Shown here: positions 2,292-5,016 of the stretch, piece after piece | Numbering within the stretch: the stretch's first letter is position 1 | Layout of the letters: every line of letters begins with the position of its first letter | Assembly (NCBI GenBank): GCA_963597005.1 | Contig: CAVBOS010000001.1 | Span: 1 to 51,136 of the forward strand | Source: Lachnospiraceae bacterium | GTDB lineage: Bacteria; Bacillota; Clostridia; Oscillospirales; Acutalibacteraceae | DNA length: 51,136 nt | Reading direction: 5' to 3' | Position numbers and translations under genes: made by a program | Notes under the pieces: model-generated | Seen by the model: only the letters and a program-made list of their open reading frames with translations | Told to the model about the DNA's origin: nothing | The model's database searches: none

Positions 2292-2325
2292 TGTCCGTTA
2301 TTTGTCCCGCACGCTTTCATATAAT
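2292..2325 (+). promoter_or_regulatory. P1: TGTCC-N6-TGTCC-N12-TATAAT promoter (micropeptide regulon)
   Basis: TGTCC at 2292-2296 and 2303-2307 (11-bp period). TATAAT at 2320-2325 lies exactly 12 nt after the second repeat. GTAATCACAAC leader follows. No TTGACA-like -35 at the 17-bp position. Confidence 0.6.
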
Positions 2326-2374
2326 GTAATCACAACAAAGGAAAACACAAAAACAAATCTAAGGAGAAACAAAA

Positions 2375-2461
2375 ATGACAACACTTGCAACAATACTCGC
2401 ATTACTTTCAATAATCGGAGTGGCACTTGAAATTCACGATTTCACAGCACAGAGAGGATAA
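2375..2461 (+). CDS. micropeptide A1, 28 aa, hydrophobic: MTTLATILALLSIIGVALEIHDFTAQRG
   Basis: AAGGAG SD 8 nt upstream of the ATG. It is the first ORF after P1 and has a single TM-like helix. Confidence 0.5.
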   Translation: MTTLATILALLSIIGVALEIHDFTAQRG

Positions 2462-2464
2462 AAT

Positions 2465-2554
2465 ATGAAAGACTTCTGCAAAAGACTAAAGGGTAAGCTT
2501 AAAAGAGCAATGGAATATTACGATGAAATGTATTCCTACCAAGAGATGATTTAA
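2465..2554 (+). CDS. micropeptide A2, 29 aa: MKDFCKRLKGKLKRAMEYYDEMYSYQEMI
   Basis: GAGGA SD 6 nt upstream. It shares the basic N-terminus plus [DE]-[GY]-Y-x-x-[MI]-Y motif with A3-A6. Confidence 0.55.
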   Translation: MKDFCKRLKGKLKRAMEYYDEMYSYQEMI

Positions 2555-2565
2555 AGAAAAAAGCT

Positions 2566-2599
2566 TGTCCCTAAATTGTCCTATAGGACACGATATAAT
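2566..2599 (+). promoter_or_regulatory. P2: TGTCC-N6-TGTCC-N12-TATAAT promoter
   Basis: TGTCC at 2566-2570 and 2577-2581, TATAAT at 2594-2599, then AAAATCACAAAAACAAAACAAC leader. Confidence 0.6.
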
Positions 2600-2652
2600 A
2601 AAATCACAAAAACAAAACAACAAAAACAACAAAGAAAAACAGGAGATTAAAA

Positions 2653-2742
2653 ATGAACATCTTGAAAAGAGCAGTCGAAGCAATAAAGAGAGATTTAAGA
2701 AACGCATCCGACGGTTACATCGAAATGTACGCTTACAACTAA
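2653..2742 (+). CDS. micropeptide A3, 29 aa: MNILKRAVEAIKRDLRNASDGYIEMYAYN
   Basis: GGAGA SD 6 nt upstream. Family motif D20-G-Y-x-E-M-Y. Confidence 0.6.
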   Translation: MNILKRAVEAIKRDLRNASDGYIEMYAYN

Positions 2743-2773
2743 AGAAAATCTAAAATAAAAAGGGGATTAAACA

Positions 2774-2863
2774 ATGAGTATTTTAAGAAAAGCGGCAAAT
2801 TCAATTAAACAGGATATGAAAAGAAAAGCAGACTATTACGTAAAAATGTACGCAAATAAATAA
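2774..2863 (+). CDS. micropeptide A4, 29 aa: MSILRKAANSIKQDMKRKADYYVKMYANK
   Basis: AAGGGGA SD 7 nt upstream. Same length and motif register as A3 (D20-Y-Y-x-K-M-Y). Confidence 0.6.
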   Translation: MSILRKAANSIKQDMKRKADYYVKMYANK

Positions 2864-2875
2864 AAGGAGAACAAT

Positions 2876-2998
2876 ATGAACATCTTTAAGAAAACATACA
2901 GAATGGCAAACAAAGCAATTGATTACCTCGCAGAGGGATACGAAAGAATTTATCAGACAGACCCGACGCTTCTGGCAAGAACGGGAAGATATATGTAG
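2876..2998 (+). CDS. micropeptide A5, 40 aa: MNIFKKTYRMANKAIDYLAEGYERIYQTDPTLLARTGRYM
   Basis: AAGGAG SD 6 nt upstream. Motif E20-G-Y-x-R-I-Y. Ends in TAG. Confidence 0.55.
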   Translation: MNIFKKTYRMANKAIDYLAEGYERIYQTDPTLLARTGRYM

Positions 2999-3044
2999 TA
3001 ACTAAGTTAAATAAAGATTAGAAGATAAAAGAGGAGATTTAAAA

Positions 3045-3155
3045 ATGAGCAAATTTGAAAGATTTAAGAAGAACGCAATGAGATTTGTCGATGCAATGGC
3101 AGACGGATACGCAAGAGCACAGGATCCGTTTATGAGCATGGCAATGTATCACTAA
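3045..3155 (+). CDS. micropeptide A6, 36 aa: MSKFERFKKNAMRFVDAMADGYARAQDPFMSMAMYH
   Basis: GAGGAG SD 8 nt upstream. Motif D20-G-Y in the same register as A3-A5. Confidence 0.55.
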   Translation: MSKFERFKKNAMRFVDAMADGYARAQDPFMSMAMYH

Positions 3156-3181
3156 ATAAAAACTAAGAAAGGAGAAAAACT

Positions 3182-3274
3182 ATGAGAGATAACTTCGGAA
3201 GAAAAATAATGACATCAGTTAAGAGAGCGGCTAAGTGTTGCGACGATTTCTACAAGGATTCGCTTCCAATCTAG
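3182..3274 (+). CDS. micropeptide A7, 30 aa: MRDNFGRKIMTSVKRAAKCCDDFYKDSLPI
   Basis: AAAGGAG SD 7 nt upstream. Its peptide is identical to A8, and the three nucleotide differences are all synonymous. TAG stop is followed directly by TAA. Confidence 0.65.
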   Translation: MRDNFGRKIMTSVKRAAKCCDDFYKDSLPI

Positions 3275-3284
3275 TAAAAAAGGC

Positions 3285-3318
3285 TGTCCCTTAATTGTCC
3301 TGTCGGACACGATATAAT
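3285..3318 (+). promoter_or_regulatory. P3: TGTCC-N6-TGTCC-N12-TATAAT promoter
   Basis: TGTCC at 3285-3289 and 3296-3300, TATAAT at 3313-3318, then AAAATCACAAAAACAAACAAC leader. Near-identical to P2. Confidence 0.6.
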
Positions 3319-3388
3319 AAAATCACAAAAACAAACAACAAATAACAATTAATAACAATTAAACCACTTATAACAAAGGAGAAAAATT

Positions 3389-3481
3389 ATGAGAGATAAC
3401 TTCGGAAGAAAAATAATGACATCAGTTAAGAGAGCGGCTAAGTGTTGCGATGATTTCTACAAAGATTCACTTCCAATCTAG
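3389..3481 (+). CDS. micropeptide A8, 30 aa, identical peptide to A7
   Basis: AAAGGAG SD 7 nt upstream. It differs from A7 only by GAC/GAT, AAG/AAA and TCG/TCA, all synonymous. Confidence 0.65.
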   Translation: MRDNFGRKIMTSVKRAAKCCDDFYKDSLPI

Positions 3482-3619
3482 CGGTAAAGTAATTAAAACG
3501 AAAGAAATTGCCCAATGAGACAACGATAAATAAAGAATGATAAAAGAGAAAAGGAGAAGAGAATGCTTTAGCGAATTAAGATAATTAAGAAATGAAAAAA
3601 GAAAGGAGAGAGAAAGAAA

Positions 3620-3712
3620 ATGGCGGCTTTGGTAATTACACCGACAGCACCTTCAACAGGACTTCCGTTTGATTTCACGGATATATTTAAGCAAAATCAA
3701 AATCTTATCTGA
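3620..3712 (+). CDS. possible micropeptide A9, 30 aa: MAALVITPTAPSTGLPFDFTDIFKQNQNLI
   Basis: AAGGAG lies 11 nt upstream, which is rather long spacing. There is no paralogue in the window, and an alternative overlapping frame exists but lacks an SD. Confidence 0.35.
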   Translation: MAALVITPTAPSTGLPFDFTDIFKQNQNLI

Positions 3713-3754
3713 AACATTAAAAAAGACAGTAAGTAAATGAAAGGAGAAAAGCCA

Positions 3755-3832
3755 ATGTTTATGACTTTACAGGAGATACTCAGAATTCGCATGCTCGCCG
3801 AGATTCCGGAGCCGTATCTTTGTATCAGATGA
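3755..3832 (+). CDS. micropeptide A10, 25 aa: MFMTLQEILRIRMLAEIPEPYLCIR
   Basis: AAAGGAG SD 8 nt upstream. The C-terminal 13 residues are identical to A11 and A12 despite 5 synonymous codon differences. Confidence 0.65.
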   Translation: MFMTLQEILRIRMLAEIPEPYLCIR

Positions 3833-3972
3833 TATAAAGCGATAAACAATTAAATTAAAACGAAAGGAAAATAAAATGACACTTTAGCAAGCCGAAGCAA
3901 AAAGAAAAAATACCTAATCAAAGTAAAGGAGAAGAGAATGCTTTAGCGAATTAAGATAAATGAAAACAGGCG

Positions 3973-4006
3973 TGTCCGTAAAATGTCCCGAACAGCCTGA
4001 TACAAT
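3973..4006 (+). promoter_or_regulatory. P4: TGTCC-N6-TGTCC-N12-TACAAT promoter
   Basis: TGTCC at 3973-3977 and 3984-3988, TACAAT at 4001-4006, then ATAATCACAGAAACAAAG leader. Confidence 0.6.
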
Positions 4007-4049
4007 ATAATCACAGAAACAAAGAAAACCAAAAGAAAGGAGAAAGCCG

Positions 4050-4127
4050 ATGCCAAATATTTTAGCAATTATTTTCGGAGCACCGATGCTTGCGGAAATC
4101 CCAGAGCCGTATCTTTGTATCAGATGA
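4050..4127 (+). CDS. micropeptide A11, 25 aa: MPNILAIIFGAPMLAEIPEPYLCIR
   Basis: AAAGGAG SD 7 nt upstream. Hydrophobic N-terminal half and a conserved C-terminal 13-mer. Confidence 0.7.
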   Translation: MPNILAIIFGAPMLAEIPEPYLCIR

Positions 4128-4267
4128 TATAAAGCGATAAACAATTAAATTAAAACGAAAGGAAAATAAAATGACACTTTAGCAAGCCGAAGCAAAAAGA
4201 AAAAATACCTAATCAAAGTAAAGGAGAAGAGAATGCTTTAGCGAATTAAGATAAATGAAAACAGGCG

Positions 4268-4301
4268 TGTCCGTAAAATGTCCCGAACAGCCTGATACAA
4301 T
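4268..4301 (+). promoter_or_regulatory. P5: duplicate of P4
   Basis: TGTCC at 4268-4272 and 4279-4283, TACAAT at 4296-4301. Confidence 0.6.
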
Positions 4302-4344
4302 ATAATCACAGAAACAAAGAAAACCAAAAGAAAGGAGAAAGCCG

Positions 4345-4422
4345 ATGCCAAATATTTTAGCAATTATTTTCGGAACAACAATGCTTGCGGAAATCCCTGA
4401 GCCGTATCTTTGCATCAGATAA
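4345..4422 (+). CDS. micropeptide A12, 25 aa: MPNILAIIFGTTMLAEIPEPYLCIR
   Basis: Paralogue of A11. It has two replacements in the variable part (AP to TT). The conserved tail shows only synonymous changes (CCA/CCT, TGT/TGC). Confidence 0.7.
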   Translation: MPNILAIIFGTTMLAEIPEPYLCIR

Positions 4423-4850
4423 AAAAGAAATATAAAATTAAAAATAAAGTGAAAGAGGTGAGTCCGATGGACTGCGAAACAGCTTAGCTGTAGACGGAAT
4501 AAAAAACAAAAAGAAAGGCGTGGAAAAATGTAGAAAACAAAGCAATTTGATAAAATAAACAGAAGAAAGGAACATAAAACAAAAAGAAGATAATAATTAA
4601 TATTGAAAAGGAAAGTATTTTTAGGAAATTGAAAGGAGAAAAATCGCAGCGGTTTGATTGTCAAACAGGCTGAAAATTAAAAGGCGCAAGTCGCCGAGAC
4701 AAAAGAAAATTAAAACAGAGACGAAAAAACAAAAGCAAAATTACATTAAATCAGAAAATAACTATATTTTATATAAATAAAAAGTTTGCAATTCCCAATT
4801 ATTTTTGATGGTTAAAATTTGACAATATATTAAATAAAGGAGAAAAAGCT

Positions 4851-4916
4851 ATGACATCCAAGACACCATTGCAAAAGGTCCATGATTTTCTTATCGGATC
4901 GGGAATTATCCATTAA
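4851..4916 (+). CDS. micropeptide A14, 21 aa: MTSKTPLQKVHDFLIGSGIIH
   Basis: AAGGAG SD 8 nt upstream. Paralogue of A15. The last 10 codons differ at 5 synonymous sites and 1 replacement site. Confidence 0.6.
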   Translation: MTSKTPLQKVHDFLIGSGIIH

Positions 4917-4950
4917 TGACAACTCAATAATTAATGAAAGGAATAAAACT

Positions 4951-5016
4951 ATGACATCCAAGACAGCATGGCAGAAGTTCCAAGACTTCCTTATTGGGTC
5001 GGGAATCTTCCATTGA
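4951..5016 (+). CDS. micropeptide A15, 21 aa: MTSKTAWQKFQDFLIGSGIFH
   Basis: AAAGGA SD 8 nt upstream. Paralogue of A14 exactly 100 nt downstream. Confidence 0.6.
   Translation: MTSKTAWQKFQDFLIGSGIFH

Follow-up and report, generated by a model that had tools for sequence, protein, structure and literature searches.

The island at positions 2292–5016 of the window, by which we mean the whole stretch of 51,136 nucleotides analysed here, appears from its sequence to encode at least 14 micro-proteins of 21–40 aa that are translated and kept by selection within 2.8 kb. Since the promoter module that drives it also heads other micro-ORF operons, the island is best read as a node in a regulon that is specific to its clade and consists almost entirely of micro-proteins of 15–60 aa.

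Micro-ORF content of the island

The plus strand of 2292–5016 holds exactly 14 ATG ORFs of 21–40 codons in the ORF listing and in an SD-aware scan, and all of them carry a GGAG, GAGG, AGGA or GGGG core 5–10 nt before the start. The same scan returns no SD-led micro-ORF on the minus strand, and 1000 first-order Markov simulations yield a mean of 1.19 ± 1.14 (maximum 6). The preliminary description had counted 14 or more SD-led ATG micro-ORFs, which holds against the roughly 1.2 expected. Its statement that no sense-strand ORF exceeds 40 codons is correct for ATG or SD-led ORFs only; mechanical ORF listing gives TTG-start ORFs of 58–67 aa (2126–2329, 2254–2430 and 2565–2753), which lack an SD and cross promoters. 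The micro-ORFs had also been called invisible to gene calling. For those shorter than 29 aa this is true within the gene calls listed for ten sister-strain loci, from which they are missing. Those of at least 29 aa, by contrast, already appear in NCBI, ENA and Logan as predicted proteins. Family clustering gives five peptide families, where about five had been proposed: A1, the A2–A8 superfamily, A9, A10–A12 (the E family) and A14–A15 (the G family).

In the left half, promoter P1 (2292–2325, +) is an exact pattern match with TGTCC-N6-TGTCC, a 12-nt spacer and TATAAT; its transcription start would lie near 2332, within the conserved AATCACA. The boxes, −10 and start region of P1 are 0.83–1.0 identical to the sister species, as against 0.49–0.67 for other non-coding sequence. 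A1 (2375–2461, +; SD GGAGA 7 nt upstream) is a hydrophobic, TM-like peptide of 28 aa, MTTLATILALLSIIGVALEIHDFTAQRG, with a maximum Kyte–Doolittle hydropathy of 2.42 in a 17-residue window and orthologues in 4 of 4 sister species and 10 strains. Because the SD of A2 (2465–2554, +; 29 aa) falls within the end of A1 and only 3 nt separate the two ORFs, translational coupling is suggested. The SD-led ORFs A2 to A8 form the A superfamily, marked by a conserved D-x-Y-x-x-M-Y tail, a hydrophobic moment of 0.54–0.76 (z 1.9–3.5) and a net charge of +1 to +6. P2 (2566–2599, +), which has an extra inverted GGACA in its spacer (TGTCC-TATA-GGACA), precedes A3 (2653–2742, +; 29 aa), a predicted cationic amphipathic helix with the moment of 0.76 (z = 3.5), A4 (2774–2863, +; 29 aa, net charge +6), A5 (2876–2998, +; 40 aa), A6 (3045–3155, +; 36 aa) and A7 (3182–3274, +; 30 aa, with a CC motif); orthologues are found for A2, A3, A4, A6 and A7. 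Several sister species share an unchanged A5 protein, with four synonymous and no replacement changes between WIN and AMJ. A5 is present on 111 contigs; its AlphaFold2 model has helices at residues 2–28 and 30–37 (mean pLDDT 69). P3 (3285–3318, +), whose spacer likewise holds an inverted GGACA, is followed by A8 (3389–3481, +; 30 aa, repeat family D3), the same peptide as A7. Homology between these two is confined to the SD and the ORF, the downstream flank matching at only 10 of 40 positions. A9 (3620–3712, +; 30 aa, SD 10 nt upstream) is a singleton in the family clustering and is the weakest member of the island, because the sister genomes contain no orthologue of it.

In the right half, the E family comprises A10 (3755–3832, +), A11 (4050–4127, +; SD-led, with the codon pattern of the E core) and A12 (4345–4422, +), each of 25 aa, in which the hydrophobic N-terminus varies and the terminal LAEIPEPYLC is invariant. 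E genes have a promoter copy of their own, as in P4 (3973–4006, +), a pattern match dedicated to one E gene, and P5 (4268–4301, +), its tandem duplicate; A12 lies in the second copy of a 295-bp tandem unit (3791–4420). Across strains, the E-family copy number ranges from 2 to 5 and the C-terminal tail varies (C, Y, CIR or CCVV). A conserved stretch without an ORF of at least 21 codons follows at 4440–4850 (+). An alignment of five genomes analysed with RNAalifold shows small invariant hairpins at 4640–4700, with no covariation and no Rfam match in the stretch, which also contains SD-led mini-ORFs (a 6-codon ORF at 4467–4487 and an ATG-TAG start-stop at 4528–4533) and a conserved promoter-like block before A14. 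The G family (..QKxxDFLIGSGIIH) consists of A14 (4851–4916, +), with orthologues in AMJ, DQG and strains, and A15 (4951–5016, +), both of 21 aa; a 100-bp unit is duplicated in tandem here, and A15 occupies its second copy. A strong predicted hairpin terminator at 5080–5121, shared with the convergent DUF896 and MATE genes, probably marks the end of island transcription; RNAfold gives −32.1 kcal/mol for the 65-nt stretch 5071–5135 that contains it.

Selection on the encoded peptides

Four sister species and ten strains share the ORFs of the island without change of order, frame or length. Orthologous islands of the four sister species give dN/dS values of 0.08–0.15 at dS 0.18–1.07 (ten species pairs), and orthologue differences at codon positions 1, 2 and 3 number 46, 31 and 153. 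Compared with AMJ, FCW and KLS, identity of the window is 0.95, 0.85 and 0.90 at codon position 1, 0.96, 0.88 and 0.92 at position 2, and 0.80, 0.64 and 0.82 at position 3, with 0.63, 0.49 and 0.67 in other non-coding sequence. The E core has 2, 1 and 8 variable columns at the three positions, each out of nine. No frameshift or premature stop occurs in the ORFs scanned across the sister genomes and strains.

The purifying selection proposed in the preliminary description is therefore borne out by the orthologues, through the dN/dS comparison it had named as a check and through the intact frames whose loss it had named as refuting. Its own argument had come from paralogues, and the counts are exact: three differences between A7 and A8, all synonymous; five synonymous differences in the last 13 codons of A10 and A11; and five synonymous plus one replacement difference in the last 10 codons of A14 and A15. 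As evidence, they are thin overall. A11 and A12 sit in the 295-bp tandem unit, whose copies are 97% identical including the non-coding parts, so their synonymous differences are uninformative on selection.

These data bear directly on whether the ORFs arose by chance in A-rich non-coding DNA, such as sRNA genes or decayed repeats, and go untranslated. Conserved blocks without ORFs and mini-ORFs of 2–8 codons do occur within the island, A9 lacks orthologues, and A11/A12 are a recent duplication of uninformative similarity. Yet the count of 14 against 1.2 expected with none on the opposite strand, the low dN/dS with its strong third-position excess, the undisturbed frames and the absence of any Rfam match make chance ORFs exceedingly improbable. 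For A1–A8, the E family and the G family, dN/dS and the codon-position patterns refute this explanation, which is live only for A9.

A shared promoter module and a dispersed regulon

The five internal promoters noted previously do exist, and all are copies of one module, beginning at 2292, 2566, 3285, 3973 and 4268. In the module, two or occasionally three TTGTCC boxes are phased at 11 bp, and 12 nt separate the last of them from a consensus TAnAAT −10; a usable −35 is lacking. The pattern has seven exact matches in the window against a chance expectation of 1.75 (matches with up to one mismatch counted). The leader that follows is 34–100 nt long (median 54 nt), 67% A and 17% C, essentially unstructured (folding energy 0 to −2.6 kcal/mol over 52–82 nt), and leads into a strong SD. 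Among relatives, 56 distinct copies with fixed geometry give the consensus aaaaaaGCT-TGTCC-N6-TGTCC-N12-TAtAAT-N2-AATCACA, to which some promoters add inverted GGACA half-sites. No other non-coding positions are as well conserved as the boxes, −10 and start region. The island thus reads as five back-to-back transcription units, each apparently headed by the module and with no predicted terminators between them. That a single module is kept across species strengthens the earlier suggestion of co-regulation.

Two more micro-ORF operons with the module lie in the window. The module at 8560–8593 (+), which has three phased boxes in sister species, precedes a 48-aa TM micro-protein (8667–8813) of a clade-confined family, encoded upstream of a Cna_B/SpaA surface protein gene. 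The module at 47433–47400 (−) precedes three micro-ORFs of 27 aa (47346–47263), 28 aa (47249–47163) and 26 aa (47123–47043), with a terminator at about 47029–46995; orthologous operons occur in L007, L009 and L011. In relatives, 136 distinct peptides of about 44 families, 13 of them TM-like, are encoded 3′ of module promoters, and the only larger genes under the module code for an AIM24 protein, a membrane protein of 212 aa and a secreted protein of 543 aa. Each peptide family tested is confined to one genus-level Oscillospirales clade, and, as the first reading had it, none belongs to a known family in Pfam, NCBIfam, PDB or an exhaustive HMM search. The locus had been taken for a dedicated small-protein system; dense and selected it is, and by its promoters probably co-regulated, but it is a node of a dispersed regulon, not a self-contained unit.

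The flanking genes are, at most, candidate members of the system. A MATE transporter gene (837–2195, +; Pfam MatE, E = 3e-49) with its own terminator (2219–2254) lies on one side, and genes for DUF896 (5134–5340, −) and a second MATE transporter (5347–6783, −), both assigned by Pfam, converge on the island from the other. Synteny of the MATE genes is kept in all relatives; they carry no TGTCC module. A constant enzyme or transporter neighbour, which the preliminary description proposed to look for, was not found: other islands with the same promoter adjoin different, unrelated genes, so the MATE genes are no constant partner. With all genes of the 51-kb window annotated by Pfam, no maturase, ABC exporter or two-component system is detected, nor was an immunity gene or regulator found near the island, in agreement with what had been reported.

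Possible roles of the micro-proteins

One unlikely yet live reading is a mother-cell sporulation regulon. SpoIIID would then bind the TTGTCC boxes, and the micro-proteins would be lineage-specific factors for the spore coat, the cortex or spore morphogenesis, comparable to SpoVM, CmpA and CotC. Read on the opposite strand, the consensus distal box GCTTGTCC is exactly GGACAAGC, which forms the 8-bp core of the site 5'-TAGGACAAGC-3' bound by a SpoIIID monomer (PMC11180830). Extra boxes in the opposite orientation, such as TATAGGACAC at 2582–2591, are expected of a monomeric binder, and the regulator located elsewhere and the dispersed regulon that SpoIIID control predicts are both seen. Several peptides are rich in Tyr, Cys or Lys, and the confinement of families to one clade is typical of coat proteins. 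The −10 octamer, GATAnAAT/CATATAAT, partly resembles the sigma-E/sigma-K −10 (CATA...), but its invariant positions T-A-n-A-A-T are of the sigma-A type, and, by inspection, only about 60% of the 56 promoters have the A that CATA would place before the −10. The rigid 11-bp phasing at a fixed distance to the −10 is, to our knowledge, no feature of SpoIIID sites. Moreover, the window shows no excess of GGACAA (24 occurrences against 23.6 expected), the 13 TM families among 44 would be unusual for coat proteins, and phmmer, a weak test here, detects neither spoIIID nor any sporulation sigma factor or other sporulation gene in about 400 kb of sampled loci.

Quorum-sensing-controlled secretion is a second unlikely yet live reading. 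The A family would then be a set of several peptides acting as a leaderless bacteriocin or a PSM-like cytolysin, with the small TM peptides as its immunity or partner peptides, the E family as an autoinducing pheromone and the flanking MATE pumps as exporters. Leaderless, cationic, amphipathic peptides of 29–40 aa from tandem paralogues in one operon recall aureocin A70 and garvicin KS, and an N-terminal helix with a conserved C-terminal tail recalls LsbB (reviewed in PMC6131525). The separate promoters and strain-variable copy number and tails of the E genes, the MATE genes beside the island in every relative and the clade-confined families would also fit, and direct-repeat promoters without a −35 resemble those of the pln, nis and spa bacteriocin regulons. 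However, searches of Pfam, NCBIfam and PDB and with HMMs reveal no similarity to any bacteriocin or PSM family, no island has an ABC transporter, C39 peptidase, immunity gene or two-component system, and the MATE genes are neither under the module nor found at other islands as neighbours. Bacteriocin loci are usually accessory and variable, whereas the left half belongs to the conserved core, its orthologues being near-identical across species at dS 0.2–1.0. Polar and devoid of Trp, the A peptides have a low net charge in several cases; the 11-bp period misfits LytTR regulators, which use 9-bp repeats with a 12-bp spacer. Short peptides with conserved Cys, Tyr or Met, and the variable N-terminus and conserved C-terminus of the E family, might further suggest RiPP precursors with maturases encoded elsewhere in the genome. 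This is very unlikely, as neither the 51-kb window nor any related locus contains radical-SAM, LanM, YcaO or peptidase genes, the A peptides are conserved over their full length and not as a conserved leader with a variable core, and about 44 unrelated families would require many different enzymes.

We favour, with a probability of about 0.5, a dispersed regulon of leaderless, envelope-directed micro-proteins under a single activator, probably an OmpR/PhoB-type response regulator. This type is the most probable because the box geometry matches the pho box, whose 11-nt direct-repeat units of 7 conserved and 4 variable positions (E. coli motif CTGTCAT; PMC4415409) share the repeat period of the module; M. 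tuberculosis PhoP is reported to bind 7-bp repeats with a 4-bp spacer (PMC4832192). We infer the activator purely indirectly: the window and about 400 kb of fetched related loci contain no response regulator, histidine kinase or other regulator gene. Counting against such an activator are the match of the distal box to the SpoIIID core and the inverted GGACA half-sites of some promoters. These half-sites are better explained by a protein that binds as a monomer than by a response regulator binding as a tandem dimer; A9, with no orthologue in the sister genomes, also speaks against this reading of the island. The A family, being quite polar (mean hydropathy −0.5 to −1.0), may bind cytoplasmic proteins instead of membranes.

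In the envelope-directed regulon that we favour, one DNA-binding activator, probably a winged-helix protein encoded elsewhere in the genome, would occupy the phased boxes, substitute for the missing −35 contact and recruit the housekeeping RNA polymerase. The A2–A8 peptides would act on the envelope as cationic amphipathic helices with their conserved tail, A1 and the 48-aa protein would be single-pass membrane peptides, and the E family may be exported and signal back to the regulon. An active regulator would thereby set off a burst of synthesis of leaderless peptides working in or on the cell envelope, a micro-protein programme of this uncultured gut Clostridia genome that is previously undescribed.

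Micro-ORF inventory of the island

The preliminary description had claimed at least 14 micro-ORFs led by a Shine–Dalgarno sequence (SD). A mechanical ORF listing, together with a scan demanding an ATG with a Shine–Dalgarno core 3–12 nt upstream, recovers 14 such ORFs of 21–40 codons on the + strand of the island (2292–5016). The identical scan finds none on the − strand of this interval, and 1000 composition-matched simulations give a chance expectation of 1.19 ± 1.14 SD-led ORFs, with a maximum of 6. Each of the 14 begins with an SD-led ATG on the + strand: A1 (2375–2461), A2 (2465–2554, its SD located within A1), A3 (2653–2742), A4 (2774–2863), A5 (2876–2998), A6 (3045–3155), A7 (3182–3274), A8 (3389–3481), A9 (3620–3712), A10 (3755–3832), A11 (4050–4127), A12 (4345–4422), A14 (4851–4916) and A15 (4951–5016). 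The earlier statement that the sense strand holds no ORF above 40 codons needs restricting: TTG-start ORFs of 58–67 aa are present there, these being without an SD and running across promoters. The only island ORFs above 70 aa lie on the antisense strand (73–151 aa, SD-less), as is typical opposite an A-rich strand. Nor are the micro-ORFs wholly invisible to gene calling, since NCBI, ENA and Logan already list several of at least 29 aa among their predicted proteins; that they are unannotated stands.

One promoter module drives the island

All five internal promoters described beforehand (P1–P5, at 2292, 2566, 3285, 3973 and 4268) proved to be copies of one module, repeat family D2. Its two boxes, TGTCC-N6-TGTCC, have seven exact matches in the window, to which a one-mismatch search adds none (1.75 expected at that setting), and each of the seven is followed, after a 12-nt spacer, by TAnAAT. 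Over all fetched related loci, 56 distinct versions of the module were collected, with invariant geometry and the consensus aaaaaaGCT-TGTCC-ctaaaT-TGTCC-N12-TAtAAT-N2-AATCACAAaAAa; some promoters carry three phased box units. With 12 nt between the proximal box and the −10 element, and 23 nt between the distal box and the −10, neither box can act as a −35, and no module copy has a TTGACA-like hexamer 16–18 nt upstream of TAnAAT. The same spacers rule out an alternative or ECF sigma factor using TGTCC as its −35, and a promoter scan couples TTGTCC solely to a displaced, poorly conserved TAAAAT. Transcription would start at the CA about 7 nt past the −10, because TCACA is conserved there; for P1–P5 the predicted 5′ ends lie at about 2332, 2606, 3325, 4013 and 4308. 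The resulting leaders are 34–100 nt long (median 54) and consist of 67% A, 17% C, 8% G and 8% T; with folding energies of 0 to −2.6 kcal/mol they are unstructured, and their SDs are strong.

No terminators lie between the island units, and transcription of the island ends at a hairpin terminator (5080–5121) common to the convergent DUF896/MATE genes; the 65 nt at 5071–5135 fold at −32 kcal/mol. The predicted operons are A1–A2 from P1, A3–A7 from P2, A8–A10 from P3, A11 from P4 and A12 from P5, where read-through into A14–A15 is uncertain because a separate conserved promoter-like block precedes these two genes. This strongly conserved block (AAAAAGTTTGCAnTTCCCnATTATTT...TTGACAATAT, 4770–4850, +) replaces the TGTCC module, and its different build suggests that A14 and A15 are under separate regulation. 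Some module promoters also carry inverted extra half-sites, either as TGTCC-N4-GGACA palindromes in the spacer (2582–2591, TATAGGACAC, and 3301–3310) or as GGACAA ahead of the distal box (for example GGACAAAA at 8548). The same factor may use these as further operators.

Orthologous islands show constraint on the encoded peptides

The substitution counts reported earlier for A7/A8, A10/A11 and A14/A15, nearly all synonymous, are exact. A11 and A12 belong to 295-bp tandem copies with 97% identity, spacers included, so this pair is uninformative on selection. The paralogue evidence for coding is thus thin, and it is the orthologues that, by sequence comparison, settle the translation question. 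Scanning the promoter pattern against 185,579 species genomes gave 23 loci, mostly in five metagenome-assembled genomes (MAGs) of one project; the remaining matches, beyond these five MAGs of one clade, are chance hits. The fetched loci include syntenic copies of the island with its flanking genes at 73–92% nucleotide identity (blastn), from which four orthologous islands of sister species were rebuilt: AMJ (loci L018 and L003), FCW (the reverse complement of L014, and L001), DQG (L008 and L012) and KLS (L004). A1–A8 keep the same order, frame and length in all four.

Calculation of dN/dS on related loci, proposed in the preliminary description as a check, gave 0.08–0.15 in ten of ten species pairs (Nei–Gojobori, concatenated A1–A8), with dS ranging from 0.18 to 1.07. 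Differences of A1–A8 from the window fall on the first, second and third codon positions in the ratio 46/31/153. In MAFFT alignments of the window with AMJ, FCW and KLS, identity is 0.95, 0.85 and 0.90 at the first position, 0.96, 0.88 and 0.92 at the second, 0.80, 0.64 and 0.82 at the third, and 0.63, 0.49 and 0.67 in unannotated non-coding DNA. The shared core of A10–A12 (the E family), LAEIPEPYL, exists in 11 distinct DNA versions, in which two first, one second and eight third positions vary out of nine; for the core of A14/A15 (the G family), the corresponding numbers are 8, 3 and 11 of 12. The same genes are intact in ten more strains (L024–L033). A9 is the sole member for which no orthologue was found among the sister genomes. 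We interpret the ORFs as coding and as members of one regulon, with a probability of roughly 0.95. That they are chance products is refuted for every member but A9, and as an account of the island it can practically be dismissed.

The peptides belong to clade-specific families

A2–A8 align as one superfamily, here the A family, with the pattern M-x-x-[FIL]-[KR]-[KR]...K-[RK]..K...D-x-Y-x-x-M-Y. Its members are 29–40 aa long, begin with a Met directly after the SD, lack a signal-like N-terminus and carry a net charge of +1 to +6. With hydrophobic moments of 0.54–0.76 (z 1.9–3.5) they are amphipathic and fairly polar, and an AlphaFold2 model of A5 places helices at residues 2–28 and 30–37 with modest confidence (pLDDT 69). 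A1 is transmembrane (TM)-like, as is a 48-aa protein encoded elsewhere in the window.

The E family combines a variable hydrophobic N-terminus with an EIPE-x-YL core and a likewise variable tail of 0–3 residues (C, Y, CIR, CCVV). In the alignment E16, I17, P18, E19, Y21 and L22 are invariant, and the core is, as judged from its codons, under purifying selection. P4 and P5 each serve one E-family gene alone. The copy number of the family is 2–5 among strains, repeat copy numbers in MAGs being lower bounds because the assemblies break or gap inside the A7/A8 and E-family repeats. The contig end of L008 and the N-runs of L024–L032 (at about 10.4–11.2 kb) coincide with these repeats. A14 and A15 have QKxxDFLIGSGI in common. 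Across families, a C-terminal enrichment in His is marginal (P = 0.02) and was set aside.

The earlier remark that none of the peptides belongs to a recognised family agrees with our searches, in which none matches Pfam or NCBIfam at E ≤ 1. An A-family profile found nothing significant in the PDB, and an exhaustive HMMER search of 1.84 billion representative proteins with it returned peptides of the own clade and one spurious repeat match, the 251-aa protein P0052. A likeness of A3 to the LL-37 core is not significant (E 0.8–2.6).

Mini-ORFs and conserved blocks between the genes

Between the micro-ORFs, a two-codon mini-ORF, ATG-CTT-TAG, recurs at 3563–3571, 3938–3946 and 4233–4241 with a strong SD (AAAGGAGA). 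It is kept in five of five species, mostly some 28 nt ahead of E-family promoters, and is also present in L001, L003, L012, L018, L024 and L028; it may be a ribosome-loading element, an mRNA-stabilising element or a conserved relic. Further SD-led conserved mini-ORFs lie at 3876–3887, 4171–4182, 4467–4487 and 4528–4533. An ATG-ACA-CTT-TAG mini-ORF is shared by the window and AMJ, the stop of a 6–8-codon ORF, MD(C/G)ETA.., moves between species, and an ATG-TAG start-stop is kept in four genomes. A conserved block without an ORF (4640–4700, +) holds two small hairpins, GTTTGA-TTG-TCAAAC and GGCG-N5-CGCC. A structured RNA in 4440–4710 was considered and rejected: the stems are invariant, the loop varies and no covariation is seen. 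At gathering thresholds Rfam returned only a T-box, and an E-value scan of the island gave nothing meaningful.

The regulon is dispersed and specific to one clade

The module also occurs outside the island. One copy (8560, +) precedes the gene of the 48-aa TM protein (8667–8813), upstream of a Cna_B/SpaA surface protein gene; another (47433–47400, −) precedes three micro-ORFs of 27, 28 and 26 aa, followed by a terminator. In relatives it heads arrays of other micro-ORFs. Tracing ORFs from each promoter up to the first gap above 330 nt and grouping them by single linkage, we find 136 distinct peptides behind the module, in about 44 families of 15–59 aa, of which 13 are TM-like. Only three larger genes were seen there, encoding an AIM24-family protein (Pfam E = 2e-69), a 212-aa membrane protein and a 543-aa secreted protein. 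The last, without a Pfam domain, is driven by the module and a CA-rich leader in metagenome contig Ga0256404 (L036, 2884–4603), the sole more distant relative found and the one true relative gained from the metagenome scan. Regulon promoters are scattered over the chromosome, at roughly 10–20 per genome as estimated from the sampled loci.

The preliminary description had asked whether homologous islands always sit next to a specific enzyme or transporter. They have no constant partner: the neighbours are unrelated and comprise MATE/DUF896, a P-type ATPase with TelA/XpaC/TPM, rpsI/YibE-F with alkaline phosphatase, and AIM24. Some 7 kb to the left of the position where the window begins, the ten strains L024–L033 carry (1–7700) a P-type ATPase gene, then a TGTCC-driven array of 36, 50, 33, 44, 50 and 29 aa, and next a divergent TPM/TelA/XpaC cluster, which we take to resemble the B. 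subtilis envelope-stress genes xpaC-yaaN. The window holds a second tandem array (25094–26788, +) of nine small ORFs of 42–56 aa with the C-terminal motif YVN(V/A)GGxxT. Its promoter, at about 24986–25014, is a canonical TTGACA-17-TATAAT and not the TGTCC module; 50-aa relatives of this family (MIKAMSIY...) sit within TGTCC-driven arrays of sister genomes. Neither the second-array family nor the 48-aa protein belongs to a named family, and homologue searches with these two and with the A family found clade members only.

A mobile-element origin was rejected, given no blastn match in plasmid or phage collections and the absence of the promoter pattern from IMG/VR. With housekeeping genes on its flanks, the island belongs to the core chromosome of an uncultured clade of genus rank. 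Ribosomal protein S9 falls into one cluster, at no less than 90% identity, with those of Faecalispora and Caproiciproducens (Acutalibacteraceae, Oscillospirales), and the window contains SDs, DUF896, Cna_B pilin-type genes and a T-box leader (21237–21449, +, 95 bits) ahead of the gene of a class I tRNA synthetase (1063 aa), probably IleS. NCBI titles of the five island-bearing MAGs name Prevotella, Bacteroides uniformis or Bacteroidaceae; they look mis-assigned, because S9, the SDs, the T-box and Cna_B are Oscillospirales-like.

A putative activator and a possible envelope-directed output

The module promoters probably depend on an activator, and we envision that this regulator would be encoded elsewhere in the genome. 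As had been noted before, no maturase, exporter, immunity gene or regulator adjoins the island, and Pfam and NCBIfam searches find none among the sizeable window genes: the 51 kb of the window contain no radical-SAM or other maturase, ABC exporter, C39 peptidase, immunity-type gene or two-component system, and the island is flanked by MATE, DUF896 and HAD genes only. Among 1813 ORFs taken from the window and every fetched locus, PhoB, AgrA and SpoIIID seeds had no phmmer hit (29 for a MATE control), and a literature search on TGTCC direct repeats in Clostridia found nothing.

An OmpR/PhoB-class activator is a tentative assignment by analogy, at odds somewhat short of even. In such a scheme, a winged-helix response regulator on the boxes would contact sigma-A polymerase. 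This type is favoured because two or three boxes, in 11-bp phase and about 10–12 bp from the −10, have the layout of a pho box. The pho box consists of 11-nt units with seven conserved and four variable positions, the conserved part being CTGTCAT in E. coli (PMC4415409), and M. tuberculosis PhoP is reported to recognise 7-bp repeats with a 4-bp spacer (PMC4832192). The 11-bp direct repeats found here, TTGTCCc-TAAA-TTGTCCt, match CTGTCAT-AAAA-CTGTCAT in plan, with four A/T-rich spacer positions; as in PhoB/OmpR-type promoters, a good −10 follows the boxes after about 10–12 bp, a −35 is missing, and further phased units sometimes occur. The likeness is incomplete, however, as the sampled loci contain no cognate regulator or kinase gene and some module promoters have inverted half-sites. 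Promoters of PhoP, CiaR, WalR and SpaR (the 'spa-box') are further activator-dependent kin of this type, and we know of no regulator whose box matches TGTCC. The Pho regulon itself was rejected, since a phoA-like alkaline phosphatase gene (48887–50491, −) has no TGTCC box upstream.

The output would be a burst of envelope-directed micro-proteins, because the peptides, like the few larger proteins under the same control, are of membrane, secreted or amphipathic kind; the odds that the peptides act on the envelope are about even. Known counterparts include MgrB, PmrR and MgtS, stress-induced enterobacterial membrane proteins that act at the membrane. These PhoP/PmrA-controlled micro-proteins are likewise 30–50 aa long, many of them single-pass TM, and have direct-repeat promoters, but they are isolated genes in large regulons of ordinary proteins, whereas the module controls arrays of micro-proteins almost exclusively.

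Having promoters of its own and a copy number that differs between strains, the E family would be a candidate feedback signal; autoinduction is suggested because each E gene follows the regulon's own box. Like SHP, ComS and PapR precursors, E peptides (23–28 aa) have a variable hydrophobic N-terminus and a conserved 8–10-aa C-terminal segment with Pro and an aromatic residue, as in AEIPEPYLC compared with the pheromone sequences LPYFAGCL and ADLPFEF. In contrast to those systems, no Rgg, ComR or PlcR (RRNPP-type) gene adjoins the island, and the boxes are direct repeats and not palindromes.

Sporulation and bacteriocin alternatives

Two other origins of the regulon deserve weight. If the boxes were SpoIIID sites, the peptides would form part of a mother-cell sporulation regulon, and the match is close: the SpoIIID monomer site is TAGGACAAGC with core GGACAAGC (PMC11180830), and reverse-complementing this core gives exactly the distal-box consensus GCTTGTCC. 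The distal box agrees at 8/8 core and 8/10 overall positions and the proximal box at 6–7/8; extra inverted GGACA sites, such as TATAGGACAC at 2582–2591, point the same way. SpoIIID-controlled genes also form a dispersed regulon with the regulator encoded elsewhere and many small lineage-specific proteins. Yet the invariant −10 letters are of sigma-A type, the two-box phasing is rigid and many products are TM peptides. CATA or GATA precedes TAnAAT in only part of the promoters, with no clear sigma-E or sigma-K −35. Searching about 400 kb of sampled loci with seeds for SpoVS, SpoIVA, SspA, Spo0A, SigE, SpoVT and YabP, a weak test, gave no match. We regard SpoIIID control as unlikely. The peptides might instead be a quorum-sensing bacteriocin or PSM-like arsenal. 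Their organisation recalls multi-peptide leaderless bacteriocins and their design LsbB (PMC6131525): like aureocin A70, garvicin KS and the LsbB family, the A peptides are tandem, paralogous, leaderless, cationic and helical, of about 30–40 aa, with an N-terminal helix and conserved C-terminal tail of LsbB type. They are, however, more polar and without Trp, show no homology to known families, and belong to a conserved chromosomal core under strong constraint, not to an accessory or plasmid locus. Leaderless class IId bacteriocins comprise A53-like, L50-like, LsbB-like and A70/garvicin KS-like subgroups, and their clusters usually hold an ABC transporter; here there is no exporter, immunity gene or regulator, and the MATE genes lack the module.

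Staphylococcal PSMs are similarly tiny, amphipathic, helical and made from operons without a signal peptide. These operons are driven directly by the response regulator AgrA bound at direct repeats; AgrA is a LytTR regulator (9-bp repeats, 12-bp spacer), and PSMs leave through the Pmt ABC exporter. Neither the A family nor the other island peptides are related to PSMs in sequence, and none has a PSM Pfam match. LytTR/AgrA control was rejected separately, the repeat period being 11 bp and not about 21 bp, with no LytTR protein in the sampled loci. An arsenal of either kind is, in our judgement, improbable. Production of RiPP precursors is far less credible still, as RiPP-modifying enzymes are absent throughout the sampled DNA, both among the window genes (Pfam) and in the gene lists of L024–L033.

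Significance of a micro-protein regulon

Bacterial micro-proteins are badly under-annotated, with a regulatory context established for few. Small-peptide regulons already known are bacteriocin loci, PSMs, sporulation micro-proteins and PhoP-controlled membrane micro-proteins; to our knowledge, a single promoter type that serves dozens of unrelated families of micro-proteins and hardly any other genes has not been described. We tentatively propose, as possible though on balance doubtful, that in an uncultured gut Oscillospirales genus one transcription factor switches on a dedicated micro-proteome whose products are nearly all 15–60 aa long, in more than 40 unrelated clade-specific families with amphipathic, single-pass TM and pheromone-like peptides among them, and with no enzymes, exporters or immunity genes. 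If true, this kind of regulon would be undescribed in any bacterium and different from the gene sets of bacteriocins, PSMs and sporulation. There is a substantial chance that the system is categorically new.

The compact signature of phased TTGTCC boxes, consensus −10 and CA-rich leader flags dozens of micro-genes at once, and because the comparative evidence for translation is strong, the regulon could serve as a positive-control set for small-ORF callers. Peptides for synthesis would be A5, the A3/A4 helices and the EIPEPYLC core, and the module promoter lends itself to reporters. What we describe is a sequence-defined regulon in an abundant, uncultured gut lineage, and it shows that a cell can give a whole regulon over to micro-proteins. 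Depending on the reading, it would stand for a new envelope-stress programme, for the part of spore morphogenesis peculiar to this lineage, or for secreted gut peptides of a new class.
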